Source: Kiritimatiellia bacterium
GTDB lineage: Bacteria > Verrucomicrobiota > Kiritimatiellia > RFP12 > DVOR01
NCBI GenBank assembly: GCA_051892815.1
Contig: JBJFGP010000160.1
Span: 1-46,119, forward strand
DNA length: 46,119 nucleotides
Direction: 5' to 3'
The notes beneath the pieces are model-generated. The model saw nothing but the letters and a program-made list of their open reading frames with translations, made no database searches and was not told where the DNA came from. Positions 912 through 46,055 of this stretch are shown one piece after another; the first letter of the stretch is position 1; each line of letters opens with the position of its first letter. The position numbers and the translations under genes were made by a program.

Positions 912-1040
912 CTCCTGTCTACCTTCCGCCCCCAAAGGTACCTACCTCCGACACCCCATCCTGCCTACCAGCCGCACCATAAGGTGCCTACCCACCGCCC
1001 CCCTTGACCCCAAAAGCGAAACTTCCGGCCAACCTGCCAC
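912..1040. repeat. 23-bp-phased repeat array R1 (4 regular units plus 1 displaced degenerate unit)
   Basis: TACC cores have their A at 921, 944, 967 and 990, exactly 23 bp apart. The units are ctcctgtcTACCTtccgccccca, aaggtaccTACCTccgacacccc, atcctgccTACCAgccgcaccat and aaggtgccTACCCaccgcccccc. A further ggccAACCTgcc lies at 1027-1038. The array starts 1 nt after stop 909-911. Confidence 0.85.
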
Positions 1041-1046
1041 TTTTGA

Positions 1047-1075
1047 TTGAAAAAACCGCAGAGTTTTGCTATCTT
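1047..1075 (+). promoter_or_regulatory. Sigma70-like promoter for the CBM48 gene
   Basis: -35 TTGAAA is at 1047-1052. After a 17-nt spacer comes the TG-extended -10 TGcTATCTT, hexamer at 1070-1075. Confidence 0.5.
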
Positions 1076-1122
1076 GAGCCCTGCACCAGCGAGGCAGATG
1101 CCTCCCAACACTCCAATAAGGA

Positions 1123-1494
1123 ATGGTGACCATGAAAATCAAAAAAGCCTCAAAAGCCGCCGCCGAAAAGCCCGTGACCGACAAAGTCGCCAAGCCCGCC
1201 GCAGCTAGAAAGTCCGCAAAGCCCCGCGAAAAAGGCGTCCGCGTGACCTTCTCCGTCCGCGCAGAGACCGGCAGCGAAGTCTGGCTGGCAGGCTCCTTCA
1301 ACAACTGGGACCCCACCGCCAAGAAAATGGCCGACAAGGCCGGCGACGGATTCTACACCGCCACCCTCACCCTCCCCAAGGGCACCTACGAATACAAGTT
1401 CGTCATCAACGGCACCTGGTGCGCAGACCCCGAGTGCGCCGAGTGGGTCCAAAACGACATGGGCACGCTCAACTCCGTCCGCCACATCCAGTAG
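1123..1494 (+). CDS. Small CBM48 / AMPK-beta-like glycogen-binding domain protein with a Lys/Ala-rich N-terminal tail
   Basis: VRVTFSV..EVWLAGSFNNWDP...GFYTATLTLPKGTYEYKFVINGTW is the classic CBM48/E-set glycogen-binding signature. ATG at 1123 (alternative 1132) follows AAGGAA. A promoter lies at 1047-1075. Confidence 0.85.
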   Translation: MVTMKIKKASKAAAEKPVTDKVAKPAAARKSAKPREKGVRVTFSVRAETGSEVWLAGSFNNWDPTAKKMADKAGDGFYTATLTLPKGTYEYKFVINGTWCADPECAEWVQNDMGTLNSVRHIQ

Positions 1495-1579
1495 AGATAC
1501 ACCACCACAGACCGCAACGAGCCGGTTCCGCCTGCCCCCAGCAGACGAATCGGCTCTTGCCGTCCAAAAAACACACCAG

Positions 1580-2254
1580 ATGAACAGCAAGCGGATCGGC
1601 ATCATCGGCGCAGGACGCTTCGGAGAAGCACTCGCCCAAAGCTTCGCAGAGAAAGGAGTCGAGATCCTCCTCATCGACGAAAACCGCGAGAAGATTCGCG
1701 AGCTCGCGCAGTACGTCACCAAAGCAGTCGAAGGCGACGCTACCAACACCCGCCTGCTGGAGGAATCCGGCTTCGCCACCTGCGACACCGTAGTCGTCGC
1801 CATCGGAGATAACATCGAAGGCAGCATCATGGCGACCGCCGCCTGCAAGGAAATAGGCGTACCCAATGTCGTCGCCAAAGCCATCAGCGAGATCCACGGG
1901 AAAGTACTCAAACGCGTCGGCGCTGATGTAGTCGTGCACCCCAATCGTGACCGCGCCCAGCGCCTGGCGAGGGCACTTCTGGCAGCCACTCCTATCGAGC
2001 TCTTCGAGGTGGCGGATGGCTTGAGCATGGCCGAAGTGGTGGTACCCAGGCCTCTGGTCGGTAAGAACCTTGCGGAGTCGGCGGTGCGCACGGCTTTCGG
2101 CATTACGGTGCTAGCCATTCGACGTCTTGCTGACGACCCGGCGGCCCCGCGGCAAGTTGTGATGGCGACTCCGGAAGAGGTATTCCAGGAGGATGATCGT
2201 CTGCTGGTTTTCGGCGCGGACCGTAAAATCGACGCCTTTGCTTCGCAGGAGTGA
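1580..2254 (+). CDS. ktrA: Trk/Ktr potassium-uptake system NAD-binding RCK subunit (TrkA-N plus TrkA-C domains)
   Basis: The IGIIGAGRFG Rossmann motif is followed by a C-terminal TrkA-C-like segment (MAEVVVPRPLVGKNL...VLAIRR). At 224 aa it is typical of KtrA/TrkA short forms. Confidence 0.88.
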   Translation: MNSKRIGIIGAGRFGEALAQSFAEKGVEILLIDENREKIRELAQYVTKAVEGDATNTRLLEESGFATCDTVVVAIGDNIEGSIMATAACKEIGVPNVVAKAISEIHGKVLKRVGADVVVHPNRDRAQRLARALLAATPIELFEVADGLSMAEVVVPRPLVGKNLAESAVRTAFGITVLAIRRLADDPAAPRQVVMATPEEVFQEDDRLLVFGADRKIDAFASQE

Positions 2255-2264: not shown

Positions 2265-3362
2265 ATGATGCCTTGTCTGGTTCCCCGTTGGTGCCGCCGA
2301 GTTCTCATTCTTTCTGTCTTGGGGGTCATGGGATTCCTGCTGGCGCGAGCGTGGAATCGGTTGGAGCGAGCGGACTTGGATGGTGCCGCGCCGGCGTCGC
2401 TCTGTTGGGTATCGATGGGGACTTCTGCGGGGTTGACGCTACCGGGTTTCCAGGCCGAGCGTCTGCACGGGCTCAAGCACTCTGTCCAGGAGGTTTATGC
2501 CCGCATCGAGGGGGAACTCTCGCCCTACACGCCTGGGGATTGGCTCCGTCTGGTGCACACGGAGAGGGCTATTCCAATCCCTGCCGATCTCCAACCTCTC
2601 GTCGCCGAATCAATCCGTCTTTCGCGCCAGAGCCAAGGCGTTTTCAGTCCGGCAATCGAGCCGTTGATGAGGCTCTGGGGTTTCCGAGGCGCGCCCCCGA
2701 AGGAGCCCCCTTCCGAGGCGGAAACCCTGGCGCTGGCGAAGGCCATTCGAGCAGACCTCTCGCTCTCGCTGGAGGGTAATCGCCTGCTCGTCTCGAAAGC
2801 GGCCCGGGAGGCGGTTCATGCGACGGGTTCGAGGCTGTTGCTTGATTTTGGCGCCATCGCCAAGGGCTATGCCGTCGACCTCGCCGCCAAGCAGATTCCG
2901 CCGGATGTGCCGGATATTCTAATCGACCTTGGCGGCACGCTCTACGCCAAGGGACATTCCCCCGCTCGCGCCGACGGCTGGCGCGTGGCCATCCGCAATC
3001 CCTACCAACCTAAGGGGGCGATTGGTTGGTTCGTCCTGCCCCCGGAGATGGCAACCTCCACCAGCGGGAGCTACGAACGATTCGTCCCCATCGGTACCAA
3101 CCTCTTCGGGCACCTCCTGGACCCCAGAACCGGCCGCCCCGTCAAACCTTGCGCCGCCGTCACCGTCATCGCCCCGACCGCCACACTGGCCGACGCCCTC
3201 TCCACCACACTCTACATCCTCGGACCCGGACAAGGTCGAGACTGGCTCCAAAAGCACCACCCCGAAGCCCACGCCGTCTGGTACCCGCCAACCCCCCAAG
3301 AGCCCCCCGCCACGACCCCGGGATTCCCGCCAATCCACCCCTTCGCAACCCGCCCCCGCTAG
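2265..3362 (+). CDS. apbE: FAD:protein FMN transferase (ApbE family)
   Basis: Motifs FSPAIEPLMRLWGF, DFGAIAKGYAVD, TSGSYERF and HLLDPRTGRP are ApbE hallmarks. I start at ATG 2265, where a hydrophobic signal-like N-terminus begins, rather than the track start 2193, which overlaps ktrA. Confidence 0.88.
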   Translation: MMPCLVPRWCRRVLILSVLGVMGFLLARAWNRLERADLDGAAPASLCWVSMGTSAGLTLPGFQAERLHGLKHSVQEVYARIEGELSPYTPGDWLRLVHTERAIPIPADLQPLVAESIRLSRQSQGVFSPAIEPLMRLWGFRGAPPKEPPSEAETLALAKAIRADLSLSLEGNRLLVSKAAREAVHATGSRLLLDFGAIAKGYAVDLAAKQIPPDVPDILIDLGGTLYAKGHSPARADGWRVAIRNPYQPKGAIGWFVLPPEMATSTSGSYERFVPIGTNLFGHLLDPRTGRPVKPCAAVTVIAPTATLADALSTTLYILGPGQGRDWLQKHHPEAHAVWYPPTPQEPPATTPGFPPIHPFATRPR

Positions 3363-3365
3363 ACC

Positions 3366-4652
3366 ATGCCGAGCAACCTTCAGATCGCCGTCATAGCGGA
3401 AAAGACCCGAGCCTACTCCCGAGAACTCTGCCGCGGCATTGCCTCCGTCGGCCAAGACCACAAAGAGTGGGCCCTCCACCTCCTGAGCGACATCCCCCCC
3501 AATCCCGATACACTCGCCCGCTACGACGCCTTCATCGTCCGCGCCTACGACCAGCCCTTCGCCGACCGCCTCCTCGCCACGGGAAAACCCATCGTCGACG
3601 TCTACGGAGGAGCCGCCAGATGCCAAGGACTCCGCCTCGTCGACGCCGACCACCGCGCCATAGGCGTACTCGCCGCCCGCTACTTTGCTGCCCGCTGCTA
3701 CAACCACTTCGCATTCTGCGGCTACCAGGGAATCTTCTTTTCCGACCGCCGCGAGCAAGCCTTCTTCGAGACCCTTTCCCGCACAGGCGCAGCCTCCTTC
3801 CAAGCCTACCCGACACCCAAAAAGGACCTCGACAACTTCAATGTCCTGAACCTCAGAAGAGAGGAGATAGAATCGAACTACTGCGAGCGCCACCTGGCCA
3901 GGTGGGTCTCCCAACTGCCCAAACCAGTAGCCATCCTTTGTAGCCACGATGCCCGGGCGCTGCAACTTCTGAGGGCCTGCAGAGGTGCGGGCATCGGGGT
4001 GCCGAGCGAAGTCGCAATCATGGGCGTCGACAACGATACTTTGATCTGCGGTTTCTGCACTCCGCCGCTCTCAAGCATTGACCCGAACGCCTTCGCGATT
4101 GGGCAATCGGCGGCGGGGATTCTGGCCAAGGTGCTCGCCGGGGAGGAGCCTTCCGGCGGGGTCGAGGCAACGCTGATTCGCCCCAAGGGGATTGTCGAGC
4201 GGGGAACTTCGGCCTACTATCCAACGGCGCCGGAGTGGCTGCCTTCTGCGGTCGGGTTCATTCGCAGGGAGTTCGGCAAGGGCATCTCGGCGACGGATGT
4301 CTTTCGCACGGTGGGGTTCTCGCACACGGTTGTCGAGCAGGCCTTCCGCCGCCACCTGCGCACGACGGTCCAGCAGGAGATTATGCGGCACCGGCTCAAC
4401 GGCGCGATTGAGCTGCTGTGCACGACATCGCTGACGAGTGCGGAAATCAGCCGCCGGACGGGATTCTCGTCGCCCCAATACTTCGCGCGCTTCTTCCTTG
4501 AGCAAACCCGGTGCACTCCCGGCGCCTTCCGCGAGCGCAACAGCGGTCCCGCGTGGGAACGCCACGCCGTCCCCAGCGCCGTGGAACGGGGCCTCCTCGA
4601 TGCTGCCGACCCGGCCGGCCGAGTGATAGGCACCAGCCGGGGCCGCGGCTAG
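3366..4652 (+). CDS. XylR-like hybrid regulator: periplasmic-binding-protein-like sugar sensor domain fused to a C-terminal AraC-type HTH
   Basis: The N-terminal LacI/PBP type-1-like fold (IAVIAEKTRAYSRE..., VAIMGVDND) is joined to a C-terminal AraC HTH (SAEISRRTGFSSPQYFARFF). Confidence 0.85.
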   Translation: MPSNLQIAVIAEKTRAYSRELCRGIASVGQDHKEWALHLLSDIPPNPDTLARYDAFIVRAYDQPFADRLLATGKPIVDVYGGAARCQGLRLVDADHRAIGVLAARYFAARCYNHFAFCGYQGIFFSDRREQAFFETLSRTGAASFQAYPTPKKDLDNFNVLNLRREEIESNYCERHLARWVSQLPKPVAILCSHDARALQLLRACRGAGIGVPSEVAIMGVDNDTLICGFCTPPLSSIDPNAFAIGQSAAGILAKVLAGEEPSGGVEATLIRPKGIVERGTSAYYPTAPEWLPSAVGFIRREFGKGISATDVFRTVGFSHTVVEQAFRRHLRTTVQQEIMRHRLNGAIELLCTTSLTSAEISRRTGFSSPQYFARFFLEQTRCTPGAFRERNSGPAWERHAVPSAVERGLLDAADPAGRVIGTSRGRG

Positions 4653-4737
4653 CAACCTCCGCCAGCCGGTCGTGCCTACCTCCCGGATCCGGACCTGCCT
4701 ATCTCCTACTCGCCGAGGTGCCTACCTTCCGCGCCCG
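4646..4737. repeat. 23-bp-phased repeat array R2 (4 units)
   Basis: Core A positions are 4655, 4678, 4701 and 4724. The units are cggctagcAACCTccgccagccg, gtcgtgccTACCTcccggatccg, gacctgccTATCTcctactcgcc and gaggtgccTACCTtccgcgcccg. The first unit spans the TAG stop at 4650-4652. Confidence 0.85.
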
Positions 4738-6414: not shown

Positions 6415-6450
6415 GCCATTCAAACTCCATCCCGGTCAGGAATGGGTTCC

Positions 6451-6566
6451 GCGGATAGGCACGACCTGAACGCAGAGGTTGCCACGACCGGGATGCGAAG
6501 GTTGCCACCCATTCCCCCTAAAGGTGCTAACCTCCCGCCCGGCATCATTTGCACCTCCGAATGCGA
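6451..6566. repeat. 23-bp-phased repeat array R3 (1 inverted copy plus 4 phased units)
   Basis: The inverted copy gcggATAGGCACgacc is at 6451-6466. Phased cores are at 6484 (gccACGAC), 6507 (gccACCCA), 6530 (gctaACCTCC) and 6553 (gcACCTCC). Confidence 0.75.
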
Positions 6567-7794: not shown

Positions 7795-7833
7795 CCCCCG
7801 GATGCGGGTACCCGCCCGCGCCGGGGGTTTGTT
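7795..7833 (+). terminator. Candidate intrinsic terminator after the GntR-like gene
   Basis: Outer stem CCCCCGG (7795-7801) pairs with CCGGGGG (7821-7827). It encloses the perfect palindrome GCGGGTACCCGC (7804-7815) and is followed by TTTGTT. Confidence 0.5.
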
Positions 7834-7846
7834 GCACCGGGATGAA

Positions 7847-7915
7847 AAGATAGGCACCTTTTGTTCCTGTTGGTTGCCACTTTAGGCTTGCAAAGGTTGC
7901 TAGGATGGGGTATTA
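7847..7915. repeat. 23-bp-phased repeat array R4 (3 degenerate units)
   Basis: The anchors are 7856 (gataggcACCTttt), 7879 (ggttgccACTTt) and 7902 (ggttgcTAGGAtgggg). This is the most degenerate array and overlaps the -35 of the downstream promoter. Confidence 0.55.
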
Positions 7916-7925
7916 TTAGTACATA
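7897..7925 (+). promoter_or_regulatory. Sigma70-like promoter for the LRR protein / GH10 cluster
   Basis: -35 TTGCTA is at 7897-7902, the spacer is 17 nt, and -10 TACATA is at 7920-7925. Confidence 0.45.
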
Positions 7926-7986
7926 AGATTCCGCCCCATTCCTTGCTACCAATCGGAGGGCGGCGTTCCAATCAAGGAGGTTCCCG

Positions 7987-9079: not shown

Positions 9080-10642
9080 ATGTCTAGTTTGCTTGCCCGT
9101 TCTGCATTGGTTGGGTTTCTGGCGGTCTCGTCGCTATCTGTCTTCGCGGGCGGCGGGTTCCATTATCCGCGTGGGATCATGCCCGAGACTTACTGGCTGG
9201 CCTGGAGCGACGAGGAGCAGGGCCGTATCGAGGAGGACATCGAGAGGTACCGCAAGGCGGACGCTCGGATTGGGCATCTTGGGATTCCGGGGAATACCGT
9301 GGTCGAGGTCGAGCAGTTGACGCACGCGTTCTATTTCGGCGCCCACGCGTTCAATCTGGGGCAGCTTGCGACGCCGGAGTTGAACCGCCAATTCCGAACC
9401 TACTGGGGAACCTTTTTCAACTCGGCGACGGTGGCTTTCTACTGGGACACTTTGGAGCCGGTACGCGGTCGCCCCCGCTACCGCCCGGGGCCCGAGGATT
9501 CGGAGGCATTCTGGAGCCGTTGCCAGGATCCGGCGGGGCAGCCTCATTGGCGGCGGCCGCCTCCGGACCCGATAGTCGACTTCTGCAACTCCCGGGGGAT
9601 TCGCGTCCACGGCCATCCCATCGTCTGGGCCTCGTCCGCGTCCTACCCGCGCTGGCTGGAGGCGGCTGCGACCAATGAGTTCGACTTCATCGCGCGGGGC
9701 TTCTGCAAGACCGACCCCAAGACCAAAAGGTGCGTACCAGACGTCCCCAGAGGTATCTGCGAATTGACCCCGGAGGAACTAACCAATGCCCTCCCGAGGT
9801 TCCTATCTCTGGTGGAAGAGGTTCATACCAACCGCATCGCGGAGTTGGCCTCGCGCTACGGCACGCGCGTCCAGAGTTGGGATGTGGTCAACGAATCGTG
9901 CACCGACTTTTTCCGGTGGAAACTCCGCCCCGACCTGCCCGTCTGCCGCAGCTGCCACGAGCGAGCAATGCCCTCCGACTATGTCTACAAAGCCTTCCGG
10001 ATGGCCGGCGAATACTTCCCCCAAGAGGTCAAACTCAACATCAACGACTATATCACCGATCGCCGCTATGCCGCCCAGATAGACGACCTCCTCGCAAGAG
10101 GCGCCCGCATCGACACCATAGGCGTCCAGCGGCACATTATGACCCGCTGGATTTGGCGCGATGTCATCTCCGGAGCCGACCCCTTCTCCCCCGAATACGA
10201 ACGCCACCAAATCCTCCAGCTTGGCGCACGCGCCCCCATCCACATCAGTGAAATCACCGTTCCCGCCTGGTGCGAGGAAGAAGCCGTTTACCCCAGTCTC
10301 GACAACCGCCAGACCGCAGAGATGCGTCAGGCCATCGTCGCCAGAAACCTGTACCGACTCTGGTTTAGTCTCAAGCCGGTGGAGGGCGTGACCTGGTGGA
10401 ACAGCATCGACGGCTGCGCCTACAAAGGCGAGTCCGCTACCTCCGGATTCTTCCGCCAGGACCTTACCCCAAAACCCGTCTACTACGCCATCGCAGACCT
10501 CATCAATAACGAATGGAAGACCCGGCTGAAAGCGCGAACCGACGCCGCCGGAACCCTCCAGTTCAGAGGATTCAAAGGCCGCTACCGCCTCAGCTGGAGC
10601 CAGGACGGAACGCAAAAGAGTGCCGAGATCGAACTCCGCTGA
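9080..10642 (+). CDS. Glycoside hydrolase family 10 (endo-1,4-beta-xylanase-like)
   Basis: The GH10 acid/base motif is WDVVNES and the nucleophile region is IHISEITV, plus HGHPIVWAS and LNINDY. The signal peptide starts at ATG 9080; the track start GTG 9065 is also possible. Confidence 0.85.
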   Translation: MSSLLARSALVGFLAVSSLSVFAGGGFHYPRGIMPETYWLAWSDEEQGRIEEDIERYRKADARIGHLGIPGNTVVEVEQLTHAFYFGAHAFNLGQLATPELNRQFRTYWGTFFNSATVAFYWDTLEPVRGRPRYRPGPEDSEAFWSRCQDPAGQPHWRRPPPDPIVDFCNSRGIRVHGHPIVWASSASYPRWLEAAATNEFDFIARGFCKTDPKTKRCVPDVPRGICELTPEELTNALPRFLSLVEEVHTNRIAELASRYGTRVQSWDVVNESCTDFFRWKLRPDLPVCRSCHERAMPSDYVYKAFRMAGEYFPQEVKLNINDYITDRRYAAQIDDLLARGARIDTIGVQRHIMTRWIWRDVISGADPFSPEYERHQILQLGARAPIHISEITVPAWCEEEAVYPSLDNRQTAEMRQAIVARNLYRLWFSLKPVEGVTWWNSIDGCAYKGESATSGFFRQDLTPKPVYYAIADLINNEWKTRLKARTDAAGTLQFRGFKGRYRLSWSQDGTQKSAEIELR

Positions 10643-12829: not shown

Positions 12830-12835
12830 CCTCAA

Positions 12836-12904
12836 AAGGTACCAACCTCCGCAGCACAATCCTGCCTATCGGCTCCCCCAAAAGATACCAACCTCCCCCA
12901 CCCA
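12836..12904. repeat. 23-bp-phased repeat array R5 (3 units, a possible fourth merges with the rimO promoter)
   Basis: Core A positions are 12845, 12868 and 12891. The units are aaggtaccAACCTccgcagcaca, atcctgccTATCggctcccccaa and aagataccAACCTcccccaccca. The array starts 7 nt after stop 12827-12829. Confidence 0.85.
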
Positions 12905-12914
12905 GTCTTTACTA

Positions 12915-12943
12915 TTGACCAGCCCCCGCGATTGTCCTATCAT
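12915..12943 (+). promoter_or_regulatory. Sigma70-like promoter for rimO
   Basis: -35 TTGACC is at 12915-12920, the spacer is 17 nt, and -10 TATCAT is at 12938-12943. Confidence 0.55.
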
Positions 12944-12973: not shown

Positions 12974-14302
12974 ATGGACTGGCAAGTCGGCTTCATCTCA
13001 CTCGGCTGCGCGAAAAACCTCGTCGACAGCCAAATCATGGCAGGATACCTGCACCAGGCACACATTCCCCTCGCCCCAAACGTCGACCAGGCAGACATCA
13101 TCATCGTCAACACCTGCGCCTTCATCGACTCCGCCCGCGAAGAAGCCGCAGAGGCCATCCTAGGCGCCTGCGAGCGCAAACGGCTCAACCAATGCCGCGC
13201 CGTCATCGTCACCGGATGCCTCCCCCAACGCTACAAATCCCGAGCCCAAAAAGCCTTCCCCGATGTCGACACCTTCCTTGGCACCGACCAGCTCGAAGAC
13301 ATCGTTCCCGCCGTCCAAGCCCTACAAAACGGACACCCCTACCACAACCAGATCCCCCCAAACGCCCCCTGCAAACTCTACAATCCAACCTACCCGACCC
13401 TCCTCTTCAGCGGCGGCCCCTTCGCCTACATCAAGCTGGGAGAAGGCTGCTCCCATAGGTGCGCCTACTGCGCCATCCCGCAAATCCGCGGCGCCGCACG
13501 CTTCCGCCCGGTCAAAGACATTCTCGCCGAAGCCAAAAGCCTGATCCAGGCAGGCGTCCGGGAACTCAACCTCATAGCCCAGGATGTCCTCTCCTACCAC
13601 CACCGGAACCTGCGGATACTCGACCTGCTCAAGCAAATCTGCGCACTCCCCGGAGACTTCCGCGTCCGCCTCCTCTACGGCTACCCAGGCAGCATCACCC
13701 CCCAGTTGCTCCAATTCATCGCCGACGAACCCAAGTGCTGCCGGTACCTCGACCTGCCCGTCCAGCACGCCTCCCCCAAAGTACTCGCCGCCATGAATCG
13801 TGCCGACATCGCCGACCAGGTGCGGACACTTCCCGAGCGCATTCGCGCCATCATTCCGGACGCGACGTTGCGCACCACCTGCCTACTCGGCTTCCCGGGA
13901 GAGACTGAGGACGATTTCAACCTCCTGCGCCAATTCATACGCACCTCCCGCTTCGACCATTTGGGCTGTTTCGCCTTCTCTCCCGAGGAGGGAACGCCTG
14001 CGTTCGCACTGCCCCGGCGCCCCGGGAAAGCGGTAGCCAAGCGCCGTTGCGAGCGGTTGATGTTGGACCAAAAATCGATTGTCAAAGAGCTCAATTCCCA
14101 CCGCGTCGGGCAAGCGGGCCGTGCCTTGCTCATCCGTCCGATGCGGGGCGGGAAATGGGTCGCAAGGCTCGACCACCAGGCCCCTGAGGTTGACGGCCAT
14201 ACGGTCATCAAGGGGCTTTCCCGTGAGGCTCGGGCGGGGGCATTCGCGCGGGTCGTGATTACGGGTTTCCGGGGGTACAACCTGTTTGCGGAGCCGTGCT
14301 GA
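12974..14302 (+). CDS. rimO: Ribosomal protein S12 methylthiotransferase RimO (radical SAM MTTase)
   Basis: The N-terminal UPF0004 cysteines are ISLGCAKN...VNTCAF. The radical-SAM box is GCSHRCAYCAIP, and a C-terminal TRAM-like domain is present. Start is ATG 12974; the track start TTG 12932 is less likely. Confidence 0.9.
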   Translation: MDWQVGFISLGCAKNLVDSQIMAGYLHQAHIPLAPNVDQADIIIVNTCAFIDSAREEAAEAILGACERKRLNQCRAVIVTGCLPQRYKSRAQKAFPDVDTFLGTDQLEDIVPAVQALQNGHPYHNQIPPNAPCKLYNPTYPTLLFSGGPFAYIKLGEGCSHRCAYCAIPQIRGAARFRPVKDILAEAKSLIQAGVRELNLIAQDVLSYHHRNLRILDLLKQICALPGDFRVRLLYGYPGSITPQLLQFIADEPKCCRYLDLPVQHASPKVLAAMNRADIADQVRTLPERIRAIIPDATLRTTCLLGFPGETEDDFNLLRQFIRTSRFDHLGCFAFSPEEGTPAFALPRRPGKAVAKRRCERLMLDQKSIVKELNSHRVGQAGRALLIRPMRGGKWVARLDHQAPEVDGHTVIKGLSREARAGAFARVVITGFRGYNLFAEPC

Positions 14303-14306
14303 AGGT

Positions 14307-15911
14307 ATGCGGCGGGTTGACCAGGCGATTGTCCTTGCGCTGTTGCCGACCTTGGCATTTGCCGTCTCGGCGTGCGGCAACCTGTTGGGGTTTTCGACGA
14401 CTGCCTGGGGGCTGGCGGGCGCTTTGGCGGGGGCGTGCGGCTACGCGGCGTGGCGGCGGTGCGGTTGGCGTCTGCCGATGGTGTTCGTGGCTTGCGCGCT
14501 GCTCTGGGGAACCTTCAAACTGGCCGATTCCGAGTGGGACGGGAAGGCGATCCATAAGCCTGGGGCGATTGCTTTGGCGGGCGGGTGGAATCCCGTATGG
14601 AAGGCTCTTGCGCATCGGGCTGAAGGCGACGCGGGGTGGGCGTGGTGCGAATATTACCCCAAAGCGGCCTGGCATGTCAATGCCGAATTGCTGCGGGCGA
14701 CGGGGAATGTGGATTTGGGTGATGGGGTGCCGTTGATTTGGGCTGGGGTGGTCTTTTGCCTGGGGCTGGGGGTGTTGCCGTGGCTGTACGGTTTGGGGTC
14801 GAAGGGTACCTATCTTTTCTCGGGGCTGTTGGCGTGCAATCCGGTGCTGCTGCGTGAACTGTGCAGCGGATATGTGGATGGTCAACTGGGCTGTTCGCTG
14901 GTTGCGGGGCTGCTGGCGTTCAGCGCTTACGCGCGGCGGCCACGCGGGCGTCTGCTGTTGCTGGCGGGGCTTTGCTGCGTCTACGGGGCGAACTTGAAGT
15001 TTACGGGGCTGGTCTACTTCGGAGCGGGCTACGCGCTGCTGGGGGGGATGGCGCTTTGGCGGCATTTCAGCCCGTCGCGCCTGGCTTGGATGGCGGCGAT
15101 TGCGCTCTCGACTCTGCTCTGCGGAACCGCGCCTTATCTGACCAACTGGGTACGCTACGGTTCGCCCTTCTACCCGCTCCACTCCTTCTCAAAGGATGCC
15201 GCCTTGCGGAACGATGAGGTGTTGCACCAGTGGCTGACGCCGGAAGGCATCGAGGCCTCAAGGTGGCGCCTGGCGGGCGAATCAATCCTCAACCCCGCGC
15301 CCAATCTGGACCGCTTCTTCCCGCGCCGGGACATCGCGCTCGTGCCGCCGATCCCCTTCAAACTCGCCCTCGCGCTGACGCTCGCGGCACTGCTCATACG
15401 GCGCAAAGGCGACCTCTTCTCCGGCTCCATCCTCCTGACCGTCCTCATTCAACCCGCCCTCTGGCACTTCCGCTATATTCCCCAACTCTGGGCACTGCCC
15501 CTCGCCCTTGCCGCGCCTGAACGCCACCTGCGCCTGCCCGTCGCCCTGCTCGCCGCCTGCGCCCTCATCACCCCCGCCATCGAACTCGCCCAACCGCTTT
15601 GGACGATGACGCTCCGGGCCCGTGAACTCGAACGCACCTTCGGGGGCGACTCCTACCAATGGCACGCATCCACTCGTGCCTATGGCCACGAGCAAGAGTT
15701 TGATACCTACTGGCTCAACTGGTTGGCATCTGCCGGCATCCCCCTCTCCGACCGCCTCGACGCCATCCCGTCCGACCGCCCGGCCGACTTCTGGTGCATC
15801 GACCTGCGCCTCTACTCCAAGCCACCGGCCAAACTCCCGCCGCCCGCCCCCCCCCTCTCCGCCCTCCTCCGACTCCGCGCCCGACAGTTGAATTGGGCAT
15901 GGAGCCGCTGA
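14307..15911 (+). CDS. Polytopic integral membrane protein of unknown function (GT-C/ArnT-like topology is possible)
   Basis: There are many hydrophobic segments. ATG 14307 lies 5 nt after the rimO stop, and the stop overlaps the comEC start (ATGGAGCCGCTGA). Confidence 0.6.
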   Translation: MRRVDQAIVLALLPTLAFAVSACGNLLGFSTTAWGLAGALAGACGYAAWRRCGWRLPMVFVACALLWGTFKLADSEWDGKAIHKPGAIALAGGWNPVWKALAHRAEGDAGWAWCEYYPKAAWHVNAELLRATGNVDLGDGVPLIWAGVVFCLGLGVLPWLYGLGSKGTYLFSGLLACNPVLLRELCSGYVDGQLGCSLVAGLLAFSAYARRPRGRLLLLAGLCCVYGANLKFTGLVYFGAGYALLGGMALWRHFSPSRLAWMAAIALSTLLCGTAPYLTNWVRYGSPFYPLHSFSKDAALRNDEVLHQWLTPEGIEASRWRLAGESILNPAPNLDRFFPRRDIALVPPIPFKLALALTLAALLIRRKGDLFSGSILLTVLIQPALWHFRYIPQLWALPLALAAPERHLRLPVALLAACALITPAIELAQPLWTMTLRARELERTFGGDSYQWHASTRAYGHEQEFDTYWLNWLASAGIPLSDRLDAIPSDRPADFWCIDLRLYSKPPAKLPPPAPPLSALLRLRARQLNWAWSR

Positions 15912-20543: not shown

Positions 20544-20584
20544 CCCCGATGTGCCCGCGCGGGGGGAGGAAGATCGGACGCGGA

Positions 20585-20699
20585 AAGGTTGGCACGAATG
20601 GGGACGGAAGGTTGCCACCTCCGGGGGCGTCTGGTAGGCAGGGAGGGATGCCAAAGGTGCCTACCTGCCGAGGCGGCGGGTAGGCAGGTTTTCGTTGCG
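20585..20699. repeat. 23-bp-phased repeat array R6 (5 units, mixed core orientation)
   Basis: The anchors are 20594 (ggttggcACGA), 20617 (ggttgccACCTCC), 20640 (ggtaggcAGGG), 20663 (ggtgccTACCTgcc) and 20686 (ggtaggcAGGT). The array lies between divergent -35 boxes at 20543 and 20695. Confidence 0.85.
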
Positions 20700-26406: not shown

Positions 26407-27098
26407 TGAAGCGGCTTGAGGTGCGGTTGGGGTATGGGTTTCGGCGACCTGAATTGTTGGAGTTGGCGCTGACGCATCCGTCGTGCCGGCACGAGTGTGT
26501 GGAGCTTACGGGGGACAATCAGCGGCTGGAGTTTTTGGGGGATGCGGTCTTTGGTCTTTTGGCCGGGGAGGCGCTTTTCTTGACGCACGGGGAGGCGCAG
26601 GAGGGGGCGTTGACGGAGATGCGCAGTCGACTGGCTTCGGCGGTATCGATGGCTGGGGTGGCGCGTGGGCTGGGGTTGGGGGAGTATCTGCGGCTGGGGC
26701 GCGGGGAGGCGCGCAATCGGGGGGGGATGAAGCAGAACAATCTCTGCGATGTATTGGAGGCGGTGTTCGGGGCGGTCTATTTGGATGGGGGGCTTGAGGC
26801 GGCTCGGGGGCTCTTCAATCGGCTCTTTCCGGATGTGGGGAAGATGGCCGTTCAGGGGGGGGATTCGAACCCGCGCGGGAGGCTGCAGGAGTATGCGCGG
26901 CATCGTTTCGCGAGGGAGCCGATGTATCGTCTGGCCGGTCAGGGCGGACCAAGGCACGAACCGTTCTTCCGGACGGTTGCGTGGATTCCCGGAACGGGCT
27001 TTGCGGCCGAGGGCGAGGGCGGCTCCAAGAAGGTTTCGGCGGCGGTGGCGGCGGCGAATCTGCTGCGCGTGCTGCCCACCGATGCGGGAGATTGCTAG
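26406..27098 (+). CDS. rnc: Ribonuclease III
   Basis: NQRLEFLGDAV is the RNase III signature, and a C-terminal dsRBD is present. ATG 26406 overlaps the deoA stop by 1 nt. Confidence 0.9.
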   Translation: MKRLEVRLGYGFRRPELLELALTHPSCRHECVELTGDNQRLEFLGDAVFGLLAGEALFLTHGEAQEGALTEMRSRLASAVSMAGVARGLGLGEYLRLGRGEARNRGGMKQNNLCDVLEAVFGAVYLDGGLEAARGLFNRLFPDVGKMAVQGGDSNPRGRLQEYARHRFAREPMYRLAGQGGPRHEPFFRTVAWIPGTGFAAEGEGGSKKVSAAVAAANLLRVLPTDAGDC

Positions 27099-27183
27099 CC
27101 ACCTTCGGGGGTGATTCGTTGCCACCTGTCGGGGGCGGTGGTGCCTACCTTCGGGGGCGGCGGGTTGGTACCTTTCGGGCGCA
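27092..27183. repeat. 23-bp-phased repeat array R7 (4 units, G-rich flanks on the plus strand)
   Basis: Core A positions are 27101, 27124, 27147 and 27170. The units are gctagccACCTtcggggg, cgttgccACCTgtcggggg, ggtgccTACCTtcggggg and gttggTACCTttcgggcg. The first unit spans the rnc stop at 27096-27098. Confidence 0.85.
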
Positions 27184-27275: not shown

Positions 27276-27497
27276 ATGGCGAGTGATGATGCGATTGAAG
27301 TGACTGGTGTAGTCGTCAAGGTGTTGCCTGCGACGATGTACCGTGTCCGGCTTGAGAATGGGCACGAGGTGTTGGCCCACATCTCCGGCAAGATGAGAAA
27401 GTTCTTCATCAAGATTGCAACGGGCGACAAGGTGACGCTTGAGATTTCCCCTTACGATTTGACCAAGGGGCGCATCATCTTCCGCCACAAGGTCTGA
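27276..27497 (+). CDS. infA: Translation initiation factor IF-1
   Basis: The 73-aa S1-like protein reads [63 protein letters not shown]. Confidence 0.93.
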
Positions 27498-31783: not shown

Positions 31784-31825
31784 TCTTTTTCCGCGGGTCG
31801 GGCGGATGGGTTCGAAGGGCAGCGG

Positions 31826-31917
31826 CGGGTAGGCAGGAATGGGGGCTAGTGGTGGGTATCTTCGGGGGGCGTTGGTGGCTACCTGGTGGGGTAATGGGTA
31901 GGTTGGAATGGGGCTAG
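31826..31917. repeat. 23-bp-phased repeat array R8 (4 units)
   Basis: The anchors are 31835 (gggtaggcAGGAatggggg), 31858 (ggtgggTATCTtcgggggg), 31881 (ggtggcTACCTggtgggg) and 31904 (gggtaggtTGGAatgggg). The last unit reaches the stop (31914-31916) of the minus-strand regulator. Confidence 0.8.
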
Positions 31918-33025: not shown

Positions 33026-33044
33026 TGAAAAACCCGCCCAAGTA

Positions 33045-33053: not shown

Positions 33054-33091
33054 GTCACCTTGACTAACCTCAATCACCCGACAGCGAACAG

Positions 33092-35144: not shown

Positions 35145-35165
35145 TCATTGCAAGGCCAAGCCCGA

Positions 35166-35280
35166 AAGGTACCCATCAGTCCCCCCGGCTGGTACGCACC
35201 TTTGCCCCCCGCACCTGCCAACCAACCGCCCCCAAAAGTGCCCACCTTCCACCCCGGAGGCAACGCACCTTATTCCCGCC
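35166..35280. repeat. 23-bp-phased repeat array R9 (5 units)
   Basis: The anchors are 35175 (ggtacccATCag), 35198 (tacgcACCTttgcccccc), 35221 (tgccaACCAaccgccccc), 35244 (gtgcccACCTtccacccc) and 35267 (caacgcACCTtattcccgcc). Confidence 0.8.
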
Positions 35281-36728: not shown

Positions 36729-37850
36729 TCATCTTTGAATCAAGGGTGTGTGTTCGAGTTGGGCCGCAAGCGTGCGCCGCCGGGCCTCTAAGGTGCGCAA
36801 TTCCGCGGCGAGTTCGCGGGTATTGGTTCCGTCTGAGAGTGCGTTGAGCCAGGCGGCGTAGTCGGCTGCGAGGTGGTCGAGTTCTTTGCCTCTGCCGATG
36901 GCTGGGATTCGCACGGCGAGGGCTTTTTGCTTGGCTTCGCGGCGGACGGCGGGTGCTTGCGCGCGGGGTAGGAGCCAGGCAAGGGTGCGGGGTGTCCAGG
37001 GGTTTGGGCAGGGGAAGTTGGCGTCTGCGGGCCAGACGAGGAGGCTCATTGCCCAGCGTTGGAGGGCTTCTTTGGTGGCGACGCCGGGGTCGAATACGGA
37101 GGCGGCGGTCTGAAGGAGCCAGGAGTCCCAAAGGGTGTCGAGTTCGTCTGGCGGGAGTTGGGGCGTTTGGCCTTTGATGTAGGCTTCGAGTGTGCTTAGG
37201 GGGTGTTTGCCGGTGAGGAGCCAGCGGGCGAGGACGGCGGCGAGGGGTTGGTCGAGGGTGGGGGTGTCGAGGAGTTCCCGGGCGGGGGGGAGTCGGGCTT
37301 CGGTCCAGCGGCTCCATACGGTTTCGAAGTCTGGGGTGGCGTAAATGAGGGTCTCGCGTTCGCCGTTGACTTGGGAGCGTGCGATGGCTCTTCCGAGGCC
37401 GGCGGCGCGCGCTGGGGTGAAGGTGTCGGTCTGGGCGGCGATGGAGCAGAGGCCGCGTATCAGGGCGTCGCGGAAGGCGTCGAGGTCGCAGGTCTCGGGT
37501 GCGGGGAGGTCGATGCGGGTCTTGCCGCCGGGTTCGACGCGGCAGTGGACGTTGGTGGCTCCGTTGGTTTCGCTTCCGAGGACGATGATCAGGGGGTTCT
37601 CGGGGGTGGAGAAGCGTCTGTGGAAGGCGCGCTGGAGTTCTTGCTCGACGCGGTTGGCGAAGACCAGCACGGGGGGACGCATCTGGCTGAAGCGCTCGTC
37701 TTTGGTATATACCAGCAGGGCCCCGTCGTGCGAACGAACGGGGGCGAGTCCTGCGTATCTCCGGGAGGCGGCCGTAGCAAGGAATGCCCCCAAGAGGAAT
37801 ACAGCAATGAGTTTCGCGGTCGGGGCGGGAATCACGCCGGAGGTTTCCAT
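36729..37850 (-). CDS. Hypothetical membrane-anchored protein
   Basis: ATG 37850 is followed by a TM/signal segment (LIAVFLLGAFLATAA). I recognise no domain. The start overlaps the upstream gene's end by 19 nt. Confidence 0.55.
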   Translation of the reverse strand: METSGVIPAPTAKLIAVFLLGAFLATAASRRYAGLAPVRSHDGALLVYTKDERFSQMRPPVLVFANRVEQELQRAFHRRFSTPENPLIIVLGSETNGATNVHCRVEPGGKTRIDLPAPETCDLDAFRDALIRGLCSIAAQTDTFTPARAAGLGRAIARSQVNGERETLIYATPDFETVWSRWTEARLPPARELLDTPTLDQPLAAVLARWLLTGKHPLSTLEAYIKGQTPQLPPDELDTLWDSWLLQTAASVFDPGVATKEALQRWAMSLLVWPADANFPCPNPWTPRTLAWLLPRAQAPAVRREAKQKALAVRIPAIGRGKELDHLAADYAAWLNALSDGTNTRELAAELRTLEARRRTLAAQLEHTPLIQR

Positions 37851-38293
37851 TGGCGGCAGGCGACGCCTGCCTCGTCCAGCAGCCGCCGAGTCTGGTCGCT
37901 GAAGGCGTACTCGCCGCCGTAGACGACCTCGCGGATGCCGGCGTTGATGATCAGTTTCGCGCAAGTCAGGCAGGGACTGAGCGTCACATAGATGGTCGCG
38001 CCGCTCAAGCGGATGCCGTAGTAGGCGGCCTGGCAAATGGCGTTCTGCTCGGCATGGACGCAGAGGCACTCTTCCAGCGACGCCCCCGACGGCGCGGTAC
38101 CGCTGCAGCGTGGACATCCCCCATCAAAACAGTTGCGCACACCCCTGGGCGTCCCGTTGTAGCCCGTGGAAACGATGCGCCTGTCGGCCACCACCACCGC
38201 CGCCACCTGCCGGCGCGAACAGTTCGAACGCGTCGCCACAACCTGCGCGATGTTCATAAAATAAGTGTCCCAATCCGGCCTCGAATCGCTCAT
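37832..38293 (-). CDS. dCMP deaminase (ComEB/cytidine-deoxycytidylate deaminase family)
   Basis: It has PDWDTYFMNIAQVVATRSNC, the CVHAEQNAI zinc motif and PCLTCAK. AAGGAG lies upstream of ATG 38293. Confidence 0.88.
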   Translation of the reverse strand: MSDSRPDWDTYFMNIAQVVATRSNCSRRQVAAVVVADRRIVSTGYNGTPRGVRNCFDGGCPRCSGTAPSGASLEECLCVHAEQNAICQAAYYGIRLSGATIYVTLSPCLTCAKLIINAGIREVVYGGEYAFSDQTRRLLDEAGVACRQWKPPA

Positions 38294-39947: not shown

Positions 39948-41241
39948 GGGGTCGCTTCCGGTCGTAGGATTCGGTGGAGAGGAGTTGGTAGATCCAGGGG
40001 TAGACGCCGTGCCCCATGCCCAGGCCGTGGACTATGCGCTTGTCGGTCGTGCGCAAGGCGTTGTAGGCGCCGTAAACGGCATTGGGGGCGCAGGTCTGGT
40101 CGACGAATCCGACGGCCATGTCGATGGGACAGCGGATGCGTTTGGCGAAGTTGACGCCGTCGTAGTAGGCCATGACTTTGCGGACGGCGCGGGTGCGCTC
40201 GGGGGCGTAGCGGCGGGCGTTTTCGATGGGTTGGGGCCAACCGGCCTGCATGCCGGATTGCCGCTCGTAGAGTCCGGTCATGGCGGGAACGAAGATGGAG
40301 GCGCGGGTGAAGTGGGGGAAGAGGGCGCAGAGGATTAGGCCGAAGCCGCCGCCTTGGCTGGTGCCTTCGTAGTAGAAGCGGGTCTGGTCGACTTCGGGCT
40401 GGGCGTAGAGCCAGTCGACGGCTCGGACGATGCCCAGCACGGAGCGGTAGTAGAAGTATCCCTCGCGGCTGTCCGCCCCGGCGTTGCAGTAGCGCCCGTT
40501 GGACAAAGGTTCGCACCACTTGAGCTGTTTGCTCCATACCTCTCCCGTCCGGAGGTAGGTATCAAATCCCCCCGAAAGTGGCAACCTTAGCACACTCATG
40601 AAAAGTACGATTCCCCCGCGATCCGCCAAATCCAACTTTGGCTCGAACGACCACCACCCGAATCCAGCCCCCGGAACCTGCACGAAAACCGGAGCCTTAC
40701 CCTTGAGCCCCTTCGGCTTGACCAGCCACCCGTAGACCCGCTGACCACCCGGCACCCCAAAAGAGATTTCAAACGCCTCGCGCGAACCATTCGTCCACGG
40801 CGCATACGGCCGAATCGCAACATCCAGCGGCACCTCCCGGTAATACCGCTTCAGCGACTTCTCCCAAAACAGATCAAAGTCCGCCGGCTCAGGCGTCTGC
40901 GAGACAATCCGCTCCGGAGAGACCGCCACCCCCCACTGCGCCGAAAACACCAGATTCGTATCCACCGGAACAACCGTACAATGCAAAAACCCCGGCTTGT
41001 CCCCCACCACCGAAAGCGACAACCGATCCGCACCATTCGTCTCCGCCAACACCTCCCCGCCAAACCGGCAGACCCTCATCCTCAACTCCGCCCCCCTCTC
41101 CTCAGGCCCGTCCGCCACCGCCGAAAAAACAATCCGTTCCCCCACCGCATAGACCGCATTCGTCCGGTCGCAGACCACCTTCACATCCGCCCGCAACCCG
41201 ACCGCCGCCAATACCGCAACACCAATCCAACGCAACCTCAT
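39934..41241 (-). CDS. Acetyl xylan esterase / cephalosporin-C deacetylase-like (CE7, AXE1 family) with an N-terminal Ig-like domain
   Basis: YEGTSQGGGFGL is the nucleophile elbow, and GMGHG lies near the C-terminus. A signal peptide follows ATG 41241, which is preceded by GGAGG. Confidence 0.8.
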   Translation of the reverse strand: MRLRWIGVAVLAAVGLRADVKVVCDRTNAVYAVGERIVFSAVADGPEERGAELRMRVCRFGGEVLAETNGADRLSLSVVGDKPGFLHCTVVPVDTNLVFSAQWGVAVSPERIVSQTPEPADFDLFWEKSLKRYYREVPLDVAIRPYAPWTNGSREAFEISFGVPGGQRVYGWLVKPKGLKGKAPVFVQVPGAGFGWWSFEPKLDLADRGGIVLFMSVLRLPLSGGFDTYLRTGEVWSKQLKWCEPLSNGRYCNAGADSREGYFYYRSVLGIVRAVDWLYAQPEVDQTRFYYEGTSQGGGFGLILCALFPHFTRASIFVPAMTGLYERQSGMQAGWPQPIENARRYAPERTRAVRKVMAYYDGVNFAKRIRCPIDMAVGFVDQTCAPNAVYGAYNALRTTDKRIVHGLGMGHGVYPWIYQLLSTESYDRKRPHGAQ

Positions 41242-44765: not shown

Positions 44766-44814
44766 AGGGGTGGAATTGGGGGTTGTTTATGGGAAGATGG
44801 TTGGCGTGGGGCGG

Positions 44815-45816
44815 TTATTGGGCTGTTTTGGAATCCTTGTTTTCGGTTTGTTCCTCTTCGGCCGGGACGGTCTCGCCAGTGCGGATGTTTTCCGGGCCTT
44901 CGGAACTGACGAAGTTGCCATTCGGGTCGAGTTCGCCTTTGGTAAGCGTTTCAGGAGAGGTTCCTTCGGCAACGAAGGAGAAGTTGTTTTTGGTCTTGCC
45001 GCTGGGGTTGATGGCTAGGGTAGTGACGGCTATATGACCGGTGGGCTGGGCATTCTTGCGCCAGATCTTGACTTGTGCCTTTGGGGTGAGGGTGAAGATG
45101 GTAGGTTCTGGGGTGCCGTTCTGGAGTTCGATGGCGTAGTCGCCTGCCAGGCTGGTGAGGCGGGTGTAGCTGTGATTGAGGGCGTGGTGGAGTTGGAGTT
45201 GGTTCTGGGCGCGGATGAGCGGGACGGTGTAGTTGGGGCCTTGAATGGAGGTTCTGCCGGTAATGCCGTGGACGAGGAGGATGGCGTCGACGGAGCCTTT
45301 TGATTTGATTTCGAAGGCGGCGCGGCCGCACATCTTTCGGGCGGAGAGTTCGAGGCAGTCGACGCCGAGGGCGTCCAGGTCTTTGAGGTCGTCTGGGGTG
45401 GAAGTTTCGACGCGTCCTTCAATCAAGCGGACGCGGAGGGCGCGCGGGAGGTCGGCGGCGGGGGCGACAGTGGCGGAGGAGTTGGGTGCGAGTCGGAAGC
45501 TGATGCGGTCGGCTAGGCGGACTTCGAGGTTGCCGTTGGGACCGGTCTGGAAGACGGTGCCGAAGGGGTAGGCGCGGTTGAGTTCGGCGGCTCGGAAGGA
45601 GCCGTCTGCCAGGCGGACTTGGCAGGCGCCTTGGGAGGTGATGACTTGCGCCAAAGGCTCGAAGCGGACATAGTCTTTGGGGTCAAGGGGTTGGGCAGCG
45701 GGGGCTTGGGCCTGTTCGGACTGTCCGTCCGCGGCGGGGGCATCCTCCGTCTCTTGGGCGCGCAATCCGACGGCGAGGGTGGCAGCCAAGGCGGCCAGCG
45801 CAAAGGTATAACGCAT
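44815..45816 (-). CDS. Secreted hypothetical protein (possible FecR-like beta-sandwich domain)
   Basis: The signal peptide is MRYTFALAALAATLAVGLRAQ. The family call is weak. Confidence 0.55.
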   Translation of the reverse strand: MRYTFALAALAATLAVGLRAQETEDAPAADGQSEQAQAPAAQPLDPKDYVRFEPLAQVITSQGACQVRLADGSFRAAELNRAYPFGTVFQTGPNGNLEVRLADRISFRLAPNSSATVAPAADLPRALRVRLIEGRVETSTPDDLKDLDALGVDCLELSARKMCGRAAFEIKSKGSVDAILLVHGITGRTSIQGPNYTVPLIRAQNQLQLHHALNHSYTRLTSLAGDYAIELQNGTPEPTIFTLTPKAQVKIWRKNAQPTGHIAVTTLAINPSGKTKNNFSFVAEGTSPETLTKGELDPNGNFVSSEGPENIRTGETVPAEEEQTENKDSKTAQ

Positions 45817-45851
45817 AAATCATCCTTTCAAAGCGTCCAAAATGAGCCTCT

Positions 45852-45880
45852 ATGTTAGCGCATTGGCCCGTGAAAGTCAA
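45852..45880 (-). promoter_or_regulatory. Sigma70-like promoter for the 44815-45816 gene
   Basis: On the minus strand, -35 TTGACT is at 45880-45875, the spacer is 17 nt, and -10 TAACAT is at 45857-45852. Confidence 0.5.
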
Positions 45881-45940
45881 AAGGATTCAACGCGCTATGG
45901 GAAATTGTCGCTCCCGCGCGGGCTCTTTCCGCCGAATCGG

Positions 45941-46055
45941 AAGGTGGGCAGGAACGGAAGCTGGAGGTGGCAATCTCCCGGTGCGGCTCGTAGGCAGGAA
46001 CGGGGAACATTGGTGGCAACCCGCCGAGGGATGAGGTTGGCACCTTTTGGACTCG
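45941..46055. repeat. 23-bp-phased repeat array R10 (5 units)
   Basis: The anchors are 45950 (aaggtgggcAGGAacgg), 45973 (gaggtggcaATCTcccgg), 45996 (tcgtaggcAGGAacgggg), 46019 (ttggtggcaACCcgccgaggg) and 46042 (gaggttggcACCTtttgg). Confidence 0.8.

Follow-up and report, generated by a model that had tools for sequence, protein, structure and literature searches.

Phased arrays of a degenerate 23-bp unit in the spacers and genes of an uncultured Kiritimatiellia bacterium

Introduction

The stretch of DNA considered here, hereafter called the window, covers positions 1 to 46,119 of contig JBJFGP010000160.1, from an uncultured member of the Kiritimatiellia. It is chromosomal DNA with a GC content of 62%, and the best named matches of its citrate synthase and its GH10 xylanase are found in Kiritimatiellia metagenome-assembled genomes (MAGs). 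Pfam scans assign to it an ordinary set of housekeeping and glycan-degradation genes. The question that the window raises lies mostly between these genes. An original prediction, made from the sequence alone, proposed that ten intergenic spacers (R1 to R10) each carry a short tandem array of a degenerate unit whose core recurs at intervals of exactly 23 bp, that these arrays form an unrecognised intergenic family, and that they could serve as cooperative binding sites for a protein or, alternatively, as an RNA signal. Here we ask whether such arrays exist, where they lie, whether they are under selection, and which of the known kinds of repeat or regulatory element they resemble.

Results

Periodicity and structure of the repeat unit

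Stacking each of the ten regions in rows of 23 bp displays a phased pattern directly and reproduces every one of the predicted anchor series, in which each anchor is the A that never varies, at column 12 of its unit. When the ten regions are averaged, self-identity is 0.48 at lag 23, 0.51 at lag 46 and 0.44 at lag 69, compared with ~0.25–0.35 at other lags, so that the autocorrelation proposed as a check does peak at the unit length and its multiples. A model-free window scan (identity of at least 0.5) returned 10 windows at lag 23 and 0–2 windows at lags 22, 25 and 26. Tandem Repeats Finder detects R7 only and misses the other arrays because their units are very degenerate.

The unit, read in its C-rich orientation, is CCaaAGGTgCCtACCtcCgCCCC. 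The ten listed arrays total ~47 units, a count that replaces the ~41 first given. In the logo of these units (n = 47), T occupies column 7 in 44 and A occupies column 12 in all 47, while C is found at columns 0, 10, 13 and 14 in 38–41; mean column identity is 59%, and about six of the 23 positions are common to the units. When a position weight matrix (PWM) was trained on nine arrays and applied to the tenth, each array scored 34.6–58.5 bits per three units, whereas Markov shuffles of the window always scored below 12 bits.

Each unit has a single dyad axis, at a column sum of 19 (between columns 9 and 10), with a value of 0.45 against 0.15–0.32 elsewhere. The exact dyad AGGT-N4-ACCT occurs seven times in the window, at all seven of the predicted coordinates; shuffles contain 0.32 on average and never more than 2. 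Outside the arrays, GGT-N4-ACC is not enriched in the window, and this lack of enrichment among isolated sites fits cooperative binding. Fifteen of 44 units, which we call type B, carry CCT in place of GGT (type A), and unit cores are found in both orientations inside one array. A regular alternation of the two types, with B units never adjacent and a super-unit of 46 bp, was considered and set aside: it is not significant (P = 0.18), and an array in another Kiritimatiellia MAG (L074, see below) has three B units in succession. The higher self-identity at lag 46 than at lag 23 in some arrays is attributable to such alternation, which is not significant overall.

Array boundaries and additional arrays

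The edges of the arrays are sharp. Units in phase score +6 to +24 bits inside an array, and the next unit outside typically scores −5 to −25. Arrays contain 2–5 uninterrupted units, the mode being exactly five (115 bp; 8 of 16 arrays), which is also the longest uninterrupted run.

The PWM finds six arrays beyond the ten listed (X1 to X6), and five of the six fall within ORFs called as coding. Neither chance nor codon usage accounts for them: once the ten listed arrays are set aside, sums over three units that reach 15 bits form six clusters at spacing 23 and none at any other spacing from 15 to 33. The window therefore contains at least 16 arrays in 46 kb, or about one per 3 kb (Table 1).

Table 1. 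Arrays of the 23-bp unit in the window, with window coordinates and surroundings
Array	Coordinates	Strand	Units	Context
R1	909..1000	+	4	Starts at stop codon of ORF 60..911; sigma-70-like -35 at 1047, 47 bp past array end
R2	4620..4734	+	5	Overlaps last 33 bp of AraC-type gene; -35 hexamer of tRNA-His promoter (4788-4816) 54 bp past array end
R3	6449..6540	+	4 strong, with weaker in-phase units to ~6563	Between citrate synthase terminator hairpin and GntR-type gene
R4	7821..7958	-	4 (7821-7912), plus an in-phase unit (7936-7958) after a one-unit gap	Inverted relative to flanking + genes; follows terminator hairpin of GntR gene; overlaps promoter-like site 7888-7916
R5	12833..12924	+	3 strong, plus a weak unit	Weak unit contains -35 TTGACC (12915)
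R6	20582..20696	-	5	Divergent spacer between RNase J-like gene (-) and GH106 (+)
R7	27066..27180	-	5	Overlaps 3' end of RNase III (+); upstream of infA (+) promoter; inverted relative to transcription
R8	31800..31914	-	5	Begins at stop of AraC-type gene (-); TTGACA-N17-TATTCT 13 bp past array end
R9	35163..35277	+	5	Convergent spacer, after terminator hairpin 35117-35150; no promoter nearby
R10	45938..46052	-	5	Upstream of FecR-like gene (-)
X1	2996..3110	+	5	Inside conserved core of ApbE
X2	9724..9815	+	4	Inside GH10 xylanase gene
X3	15624..15738	.	5 weaker, in mixed orientation	3' part of hypothetical ORF 14286..15911; ~160-270 bp upstream of ComEC start
X4	24241..24286	+	2, in weak phased signal 24218-24309; borderline	C-terminal extension of RsfS ORF, just upstream of IspH
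X5	37722..37790	-	3, in phased signal 37696-37813	Just after stop of tadA-like deaminase gene (37832)
X6	40503..40617	+	Five unit lengths, one weak	Inside AXE1 esterase fold, residues ~215-254

Probable selection on arrays inside genes

In synonymous-codon shuffles of the ApbE, GH10 and AXE1 genes, the observed array score was matched in 0 of 2,000 cases for each gene. X1 in ApbE and X6 in AXE1 lie in conserved catalytic cores, and both proteins align to PDB homologues without inserted length. Intragenic arrays that add no length and exceed synonymous shuffles point to a selected DNA-level signal and not to an inserted mobile element; these arrays are written into the coding sequence by codon choice.

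Conservation in relatives

Syntenic contigs were recovered from two relatives. The closer one (L131) shares 97% identity in GH10 and has a four-fold-site divergence of 0.08; the more distant one (L132, L120 and L121) shares 85% identity in GH10 and has a four-fold-site divergence of 0.25. Arrays R2, R3, R4, R5, X1 and X2 have counterparts in the relatives, with location and register both preserved. R2 is conserved in L120/L121 and X1 in L121; R3 has orthologues in L131 and in L132/L120 with its register unchanged; X2 is conserved in L131 and weaker in L132; and X3 is present in L131 only. No indels were found within orthologous arrays. The sole length difference is at R5, which in the window is one 23-bp unit shorter than in both L131 and L132.

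Substitutions are distributed very unevenly over the unit. In 15 orthologous unit pairs, a small sample, columns 5, 7, 12, 13, 14 and 19 differ in 0–13% of pairs, and columns 6, 8, 9, 11 and 16–18 differ in 40–60%, which exceeds the divergence of four-fold sites. In this sample the pattern is one of purifying selection on specific columns, with constrained half-sites and a free centre.

Placement relative to genes, terminators and promoters

With the gene map corrected as described below, an array is found in 11 of 11 spacers of at least 141 bp and in 0 of 6 spacers of 61–121 bp. The three spacers originally listed as array-free (27498-27605, 31383-31503 and 32985-33091) indeed lack one. The 3.1 kb of non-coding DNA contains 11 arrays and the 42.9 kb of coding DNA contains five, a ~30-fold enrichment, so that the description of the family as intergenic holds as a strong preference, but not as a rule, given the five arrays in coding sequence.

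Arrays start at or just past the upstream stop codon in R1, R2, R5, R8 and X5, and R3, R4 and R9 follow intrinsic terminator hairpins. In seven arrays (R1, R2, R5, R6, R7, R8 and R10), a sigma-70-like -35/-10 pair is located 13–54 bp past the array end; inspection of the flanks revealed no constant register between the arrays and the -35 hexamer. Most arrays have their C-rich strand on the sense side. The exceptions are R4 and R7, which are inverted, and the stricter statement that the C-rich strand is always the sense strand was rejected on that account. Apart from one GC-rich word, no 8-mer recurs in the 70-nt flanks of as many as three of the ten listed arrays, and neither terminal inverted repeats nor leader or tail segments were found at these arrays. 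A MITE (miniature inverted-repeat transposable element) was rejected on these grounds, as the original prediction had done.

A base-composition skew was also noted in the window. Several stretches of genes on the plus strand have a strong excess of C over G on the sense strand (skew to about −0.3), and stretches on the minus strand are reversed. The RNase III region has the opposite sign of skew, and the polarity of the arrays tends to follow the local skew.

Three near-consensus sigma-70-type promoters were observed, at 4788-4816 (TTGCCA-17-TAAATT), 12915-12943 (TTGACC-17-TATCAT) and ~31750-31784 (TTGACA-17-TATTCT). All three are fully conserved wherever the relatives allowed checking, and the lineage therefore seems to use classical -35/-10 promoters.

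Gene map and neighbouring genes

Two open reading frames (ORFs) required correction. ORF 25695..27125(-) is spurious and lies antisense to the genes for thymidine phosphorylase and RNase III; the latter is located at 26403..27098(+), followed by infA at ~27285..27497(+). ORF 36729..38117(-), of 462 aa, was called too long at the 5′ end, where it overlaps a gene for a tadA-like deaminase (37832..38290(-)). X5 lies just after the stop of the tadA-like gene, which this long ORF had masked, and is probably intergenic.

The RsfS ORF (window 23754-24311) has a C-terminal extension of ~80 aa beyond its Pfam domain, which runs through the stop-free X4 to the start of IspH. Instead of a real protein segment, this extension may be an artefact, produced by reading through the C-rich array. 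ORF callers read on through the C-rich arrays, which lack stops, and make genes too long, as may be the case for the RsfS tail and as in ORF 36729..38117. We agree with the original prediction that the arrays encode no peptide of their own. Also of concern for annotation, standard tandem-repeat finders miss this array family.

The sole known RNA in the window, as identified by Rfam, is tRNA-His at 4835-4910. Within the AraC-type regulator gene (window 3911-4122), ~228 bp are missing in the L120/L121 lineage, where gene calls are also fragmented, which suggests that this regulator is decaying there.

Distribution in the lineage and database scans

One array of five units was found in L074, upstream of a tRNA-Leu gene. 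No 23-bp arrays were found in the more distant Kiritimatiellia loci L122/L134 (51–52% GC), L123, L124, L125–L128 and L155. In L122, citrate synthase is followed by a spacer that is ~120 bp shorter, a difference of roughly one array. On the evidence of these absences and of the shorter spacer, the family is lineage-restricted and patchy. A PWM match in the GH10 gene of L134, a relative with 51% GC, was rejected; it is weak, is not orthologous to X2, and is probably an effect of composition. On the loci sampled, MAG JAXFQS01 counts with the clade of the window as array-positive, and GCA_031552845.1 and the ERR12318434 lineage count as array-negative relatives.

A scan of genome contigs with a four-unit pattern, TNNCNACC, gave mostly unrelated, near-perfect 23-bp variable-number tandem repeats (VNTRs), and among the matches listed only L074 belongs to the family. 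An A-B-A pattern yielded two matches in metagenome contigs, neither of them in the array family, and a scan of viral contigs yielded only unrelated operator-like or VNTR arrays. A look-up of the exact citrate synthase protein of the window found no record of it. At the Rfam gathering score no array matched in the window or in the related loci, as had been suggested for checking, and the best E-value for R6 was 0.45. A literature search on Kiritimatiellia repeats, 23-bp repeats and GGTNNNNACC returned nothing relevant.

Arrays of the same period and different sequence were encountered elsewhere. Three IMG/VR phage contigs (L146, L148 and L153) contain three dyad-symmetric GGT-N4-ACC sites at exactly 23-bp spacing with divergent flanks, an architecture that resembles phage repressor operators. 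In Bacteroidales/Bacteroidetes MAGs (L039, L077, L088, L093, L095, L110, L113 and L115, also L006, L037 and L067), there are 4–7 units of 23 bp in tandem, the core of which, GGTAGCTACC, is a perfect palindrome; they are situated between unrelated housekeeping genes (TldD/7TM-HD, MatE, cytochrome bd, Ffh/FolD). They have the period of the BrickBuilt repeat discussed below, differ from it in sequence, and have no Rfam match. In many MAGs, from Alphaproteobacteria and other groups (L005, L020, L025, L029–L031, L033, L040, L046, L048, L058, L069, L070, L072, L079, L094, L103 and L116), a conserved array of four 23-bp units (CGATTGATCGCGACCACC...) adjoins the start of a conserved ORF (ATGCCGATTCGAAGATCACC, read on the opposite strand). 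At least three of these MAGs contain it in several copies, and it has the look of a mobile-element terminus to which transposase would bind at several sites.

Discussion

Possible tandem operators for a DNA-binding protein

What the arrays do can be approached from the form of the unit. The single dyad axis, halves that behave independently, conserved half-sites and sharply bounded, size-capped arrays are the features from which we infer protein binding, an oligomeric state, a geometry and a function. The exact and specific periodicity, the arrays written into coding sequence, their occurrence in both orientations relative to transcription, the occupancy of all long spacers and the nearness of promoter-like sites are further points in favour. 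Each 23-bp unit could be a putative operator, on double-stranded DNA, for an abundant, sequence-specific and cooperatively binding protein; judged from sequence, we place the chances of this reading at about even. One copy of the protein, probably a dimer, would occupy each unit and read the half-sites (A)GGT and ACC(T) about the dyad between columns 9 and 10, leaving three or four central bases unread, and up to five copies would lie side by side at the fixed pitch of 23 bp. The absence of covariation between the two halves of the unit is as expected for protein half-sites and not for hairpins.

Cooperative binding, as originally suggested, is thus retained as a putative property, but the geometry suggested along with it is not. 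A pitch of 23 bp had been taken as about two helical turns, which would place all sites on one face of the DNA. It corresponds to ~2.2 turns, and neighbouring sites are therefore rotated by ~72 degrees. Five units amount to 115 bp, 11 turns and one full revolution, and would therefore make a discrete wrapped or helical nucleoprotein particle, as opposed to an open-ended filament. An assembly that closes on itself, or makes a single helical turn, could explain the five-unit cap. Most such particles would form in the stretch that separates a transcription unit's end from the promoter that follows, with a minority inside genes, and the protein would have to be abundant because there is about one array in every 3 kb. 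Because of the position of the arrays between transcription units, their function would most likely be architectural, either as a boundary or insulator or as a module upstream of promoters.

Several considerations weigh against this interpretation. About one third of the units, those of type B, have a single good half-site left. The units are also polar, owing to their C-rich flank, and this polarity mostly follows transcription; a symmetric dimer has no need of it. The geometry of five units and 72 degrees is so far numerology. The intragenic arrays are awkward for a role as roadblock or insulator, and the patchy distribution in the lineage is equally expected of a selfish repeat.

A bolder extension, which we offer tentatively and regard as possible though on the unlikely side, is that the arrays are loading sites of a new bacterial chromatin-like system, in which a lineage-specific protein would assemble into five-subunit particles of 115 bp and 11 turns. 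Were this true, particles would be found at nearly every transcription-unit boundary and at selected intragenic sites, and the genome would encode its own phased positioning code, partly through synonymous codon choice. We know of no bacterial nucleoid protein that uses such a code.

Alternative explanations

The arrays could instead be a selfish or neutral dispersed minisatellite that has spread through the spacers and is decaying there, with no function for the host. This is the alternative that survives best, although we consider it unlikely. A 23-nt intergenic minisatellite family, the nearest to the present arrays among described elements, is known from Porphyromonas gingivalis: BrickBuilt, a dispersed minisatellite MITE with the unit AGACCATAGTATCCTCTCATATG and ~95% identity between units (Klein et al., 2015; PMC4596501). 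It has 1–22.8 copies per array, a leader and a tail on either side that bear IS5-like terminal inverted repeats, and 19 copies in a 2.3-Mb genome, always intergenic (PMC4596501). Its existence qualifies the description of the present arrays as unrecognised, which holds in so far as no family matches them. Like BrickBuilt, the arrays consist of tandem units of exactly 23 nt without spacers, change in copy number by whole units (as at R5, between close relatives), have no Rfam match, and are scattered over many spacers of the chromosome, where the neighbouring housekeeping genes are unrelated and terminators and promoters are often close by. The patchy distribution, with the clade of the window and L074 positive and the other sampled Kiritimatiellia loci negative, the shorter orthologous spacer in L122, and the similar 23-bp arrays in Bacteroidales MAGs are also in keeping with a selfish or neutral repeat. 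Sequence and architecture nevertheless differ. The units in the window are alike at only ~6 of 23 positions, and no alignment of their logo to the BrickBuilt unit keeps T7 and A12; the arrays do not exceed five units, have no leader, tail or terminal inverted repeats, occur about once per 3 kb, and in some cases lie in coding sequence. A decaying minisatellite does not readily account for the ~six common positions staying constant between orthologues when the divergence at other positions exceeds that of four-fold sites, for arrays free of internal indels, or for arrays inside conserved protein cores that add no length.

A strand-specific signal at the level of RNA would place the function in the transcript, with a C-rich, unstructured stretch acting as a Rho-loading (rut-like) site or as another element of the 3′ or 5′ untranslated region. 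Most arrays do present at least ~70 nt of C-rich, G-poor, unstructured sequence on the transcript, and two C-rich patches per unit, ~10–13 nt apart, can be inferred from the logo. The C-rich strands form weak folds, as in R8 with −6.9 kcal/mol across 121 nt, and z-scores are near 0. Those arrays that begin at or within the region of the upstream stop codon (R1, R2, R5, R8 and X5) have no hairpin terminator there. Nevertheless, R4 and R7 are inverted relative to transcription, and so do not present such a transcript, yet they score as high as the rest; R3, R4 and R9 are downstream of good intrinsic terminators; the strongest constraints fall on a T and an A symmetric about the dyad and not on YC dinucleotides; and unit cores run both ways round inside one array. 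We know of no rut sites that are sequence-phased, and overall this explanation appears improbable.

The pitch of 23 bp is also the length of a -35 hexamer plus a 17-bp spacer, which raises the prospect of stacked sigma/RNA polymerase sites in the manner of promoter islands or polymerase reservoirs. The invariant T-N4-A corresponds to the two outermost bases of TTGACA, the sequence TTGCCA is found in some units, and the -35 hexamers of R5 and R8 (TTGACC and TTGACA) continue the register at column 13 of the next unit. Segments of BrickBuilt also show promoter activity (PMC4596501). The TTG, however, is not conserved (T at column 8 in 6 of 47 units, G at column 9 in 17 of 47), the units have no -10-like hexamer, the distance from array end to promoter varies without a common register, and arrays are also found mid-gene and in a convergent spacer, which leaves this explanation with only a slim chance.

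A structured RNA or DNA cruciform, in which each unit would form an AAGGT/ACCTT hairpin, finds some support in the seven perfect dyads, many near-dyads and the folding of R6 (z of −2.9 and −3.4, an exception owed to the mutual inversion of neighbouring R6 units), but we reject it as scarcely credible on absent covariation (paired cells 55.6% vs 57.3% in column shuffles, with 421 of 500 shuffles pairing at least as well), stems broken in the type B units, z between −2.0 and +0.35, and mostly no lower than −1.3, in 10 of 12 folds (six arrays, both strands), and no Rfam match. The same results disfavour the structured part of the RNA signal put forward in the original prediction.

Comparison with known systems

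In mechanism the arrays resemble operators and iterons for DNA-binding proteins. Known tandem examples include lambda OR1–OR3, with a centre spacing of 23–24 bp, the iterons of ori-lambda inside gene O, and the sopC/parC centromere arrays of plasmids. As in the lambda operators and iterons, the arrays in the window are composed of dyad sites phased at ~23 bp with conserved half-sites and a free centre; the sites are few, fixed in number and can be embedded in coding sequence. Iteron and operator arrays occur once or a few times per replicon, beside the gene of their own binding protein. Unlike them, the window has at least 16 arrays in 46 kb, beside unrelated housekeeping genes and with no associated rep, par or repressor gene.

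REP and BIME elements of enterobacteria and pseudomonads are abundant, mostly extragenic, located near gene ends and lineage-specific; they are thought to bind gyrase and IHF and to affect termination or mRNA stability. The arrays share their abundance, their mostly extragenic location close behind gene ends and their restriction to a lineage. REPs are imperfect hairpin palindromes of 20–40 nt, maintained by RAYT transposases; their copies are highly identical, alternate in orientation and are joined by linkers of variable length. In contrast, the arrays have no hairpin constraint, a fixed pitch of 23 bp and low unit identity, and no transposase-like families were among the Pfam hits of the window ORFs scanned. 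CRISPR arrays, already doubted in the original prediction, are excluded by contiguous units, the lack of spacers and conservation at only ~6 positions.

USS/DUS, Chi, KOPS, matS and Noc/SlmA sites show that short DNA words can be selected chromosome-wide, including within genes through codon choice. These are single sites or inverted pairs, unlike those of the window, which occur in phased arrays only and are not enriched in isolation. The arrays match no described repeat family, REP/BIME, CRISPR and Rfam families being excluded by the features tested. They are of the dispersed-repeat or operator-array kind, with a substantial chance of marking a new genome-wide nucleoprotein system.

Implications

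We know of no bacterium in which a genome-wide layer of this sort has been described; the nearest precedents are REP/BIME, USS and matS, none of which is a phased array. If the arrays are protein-loading sites, this lineage would set a particle of constant size in almost all the gaps that separate its transcription units, and would tolerate the same signal inside conserved genes by way of codon choice. The arrays would then represent a sequence-encoded, genome-wide layer in the organisation of the chromosome or its transcription units.

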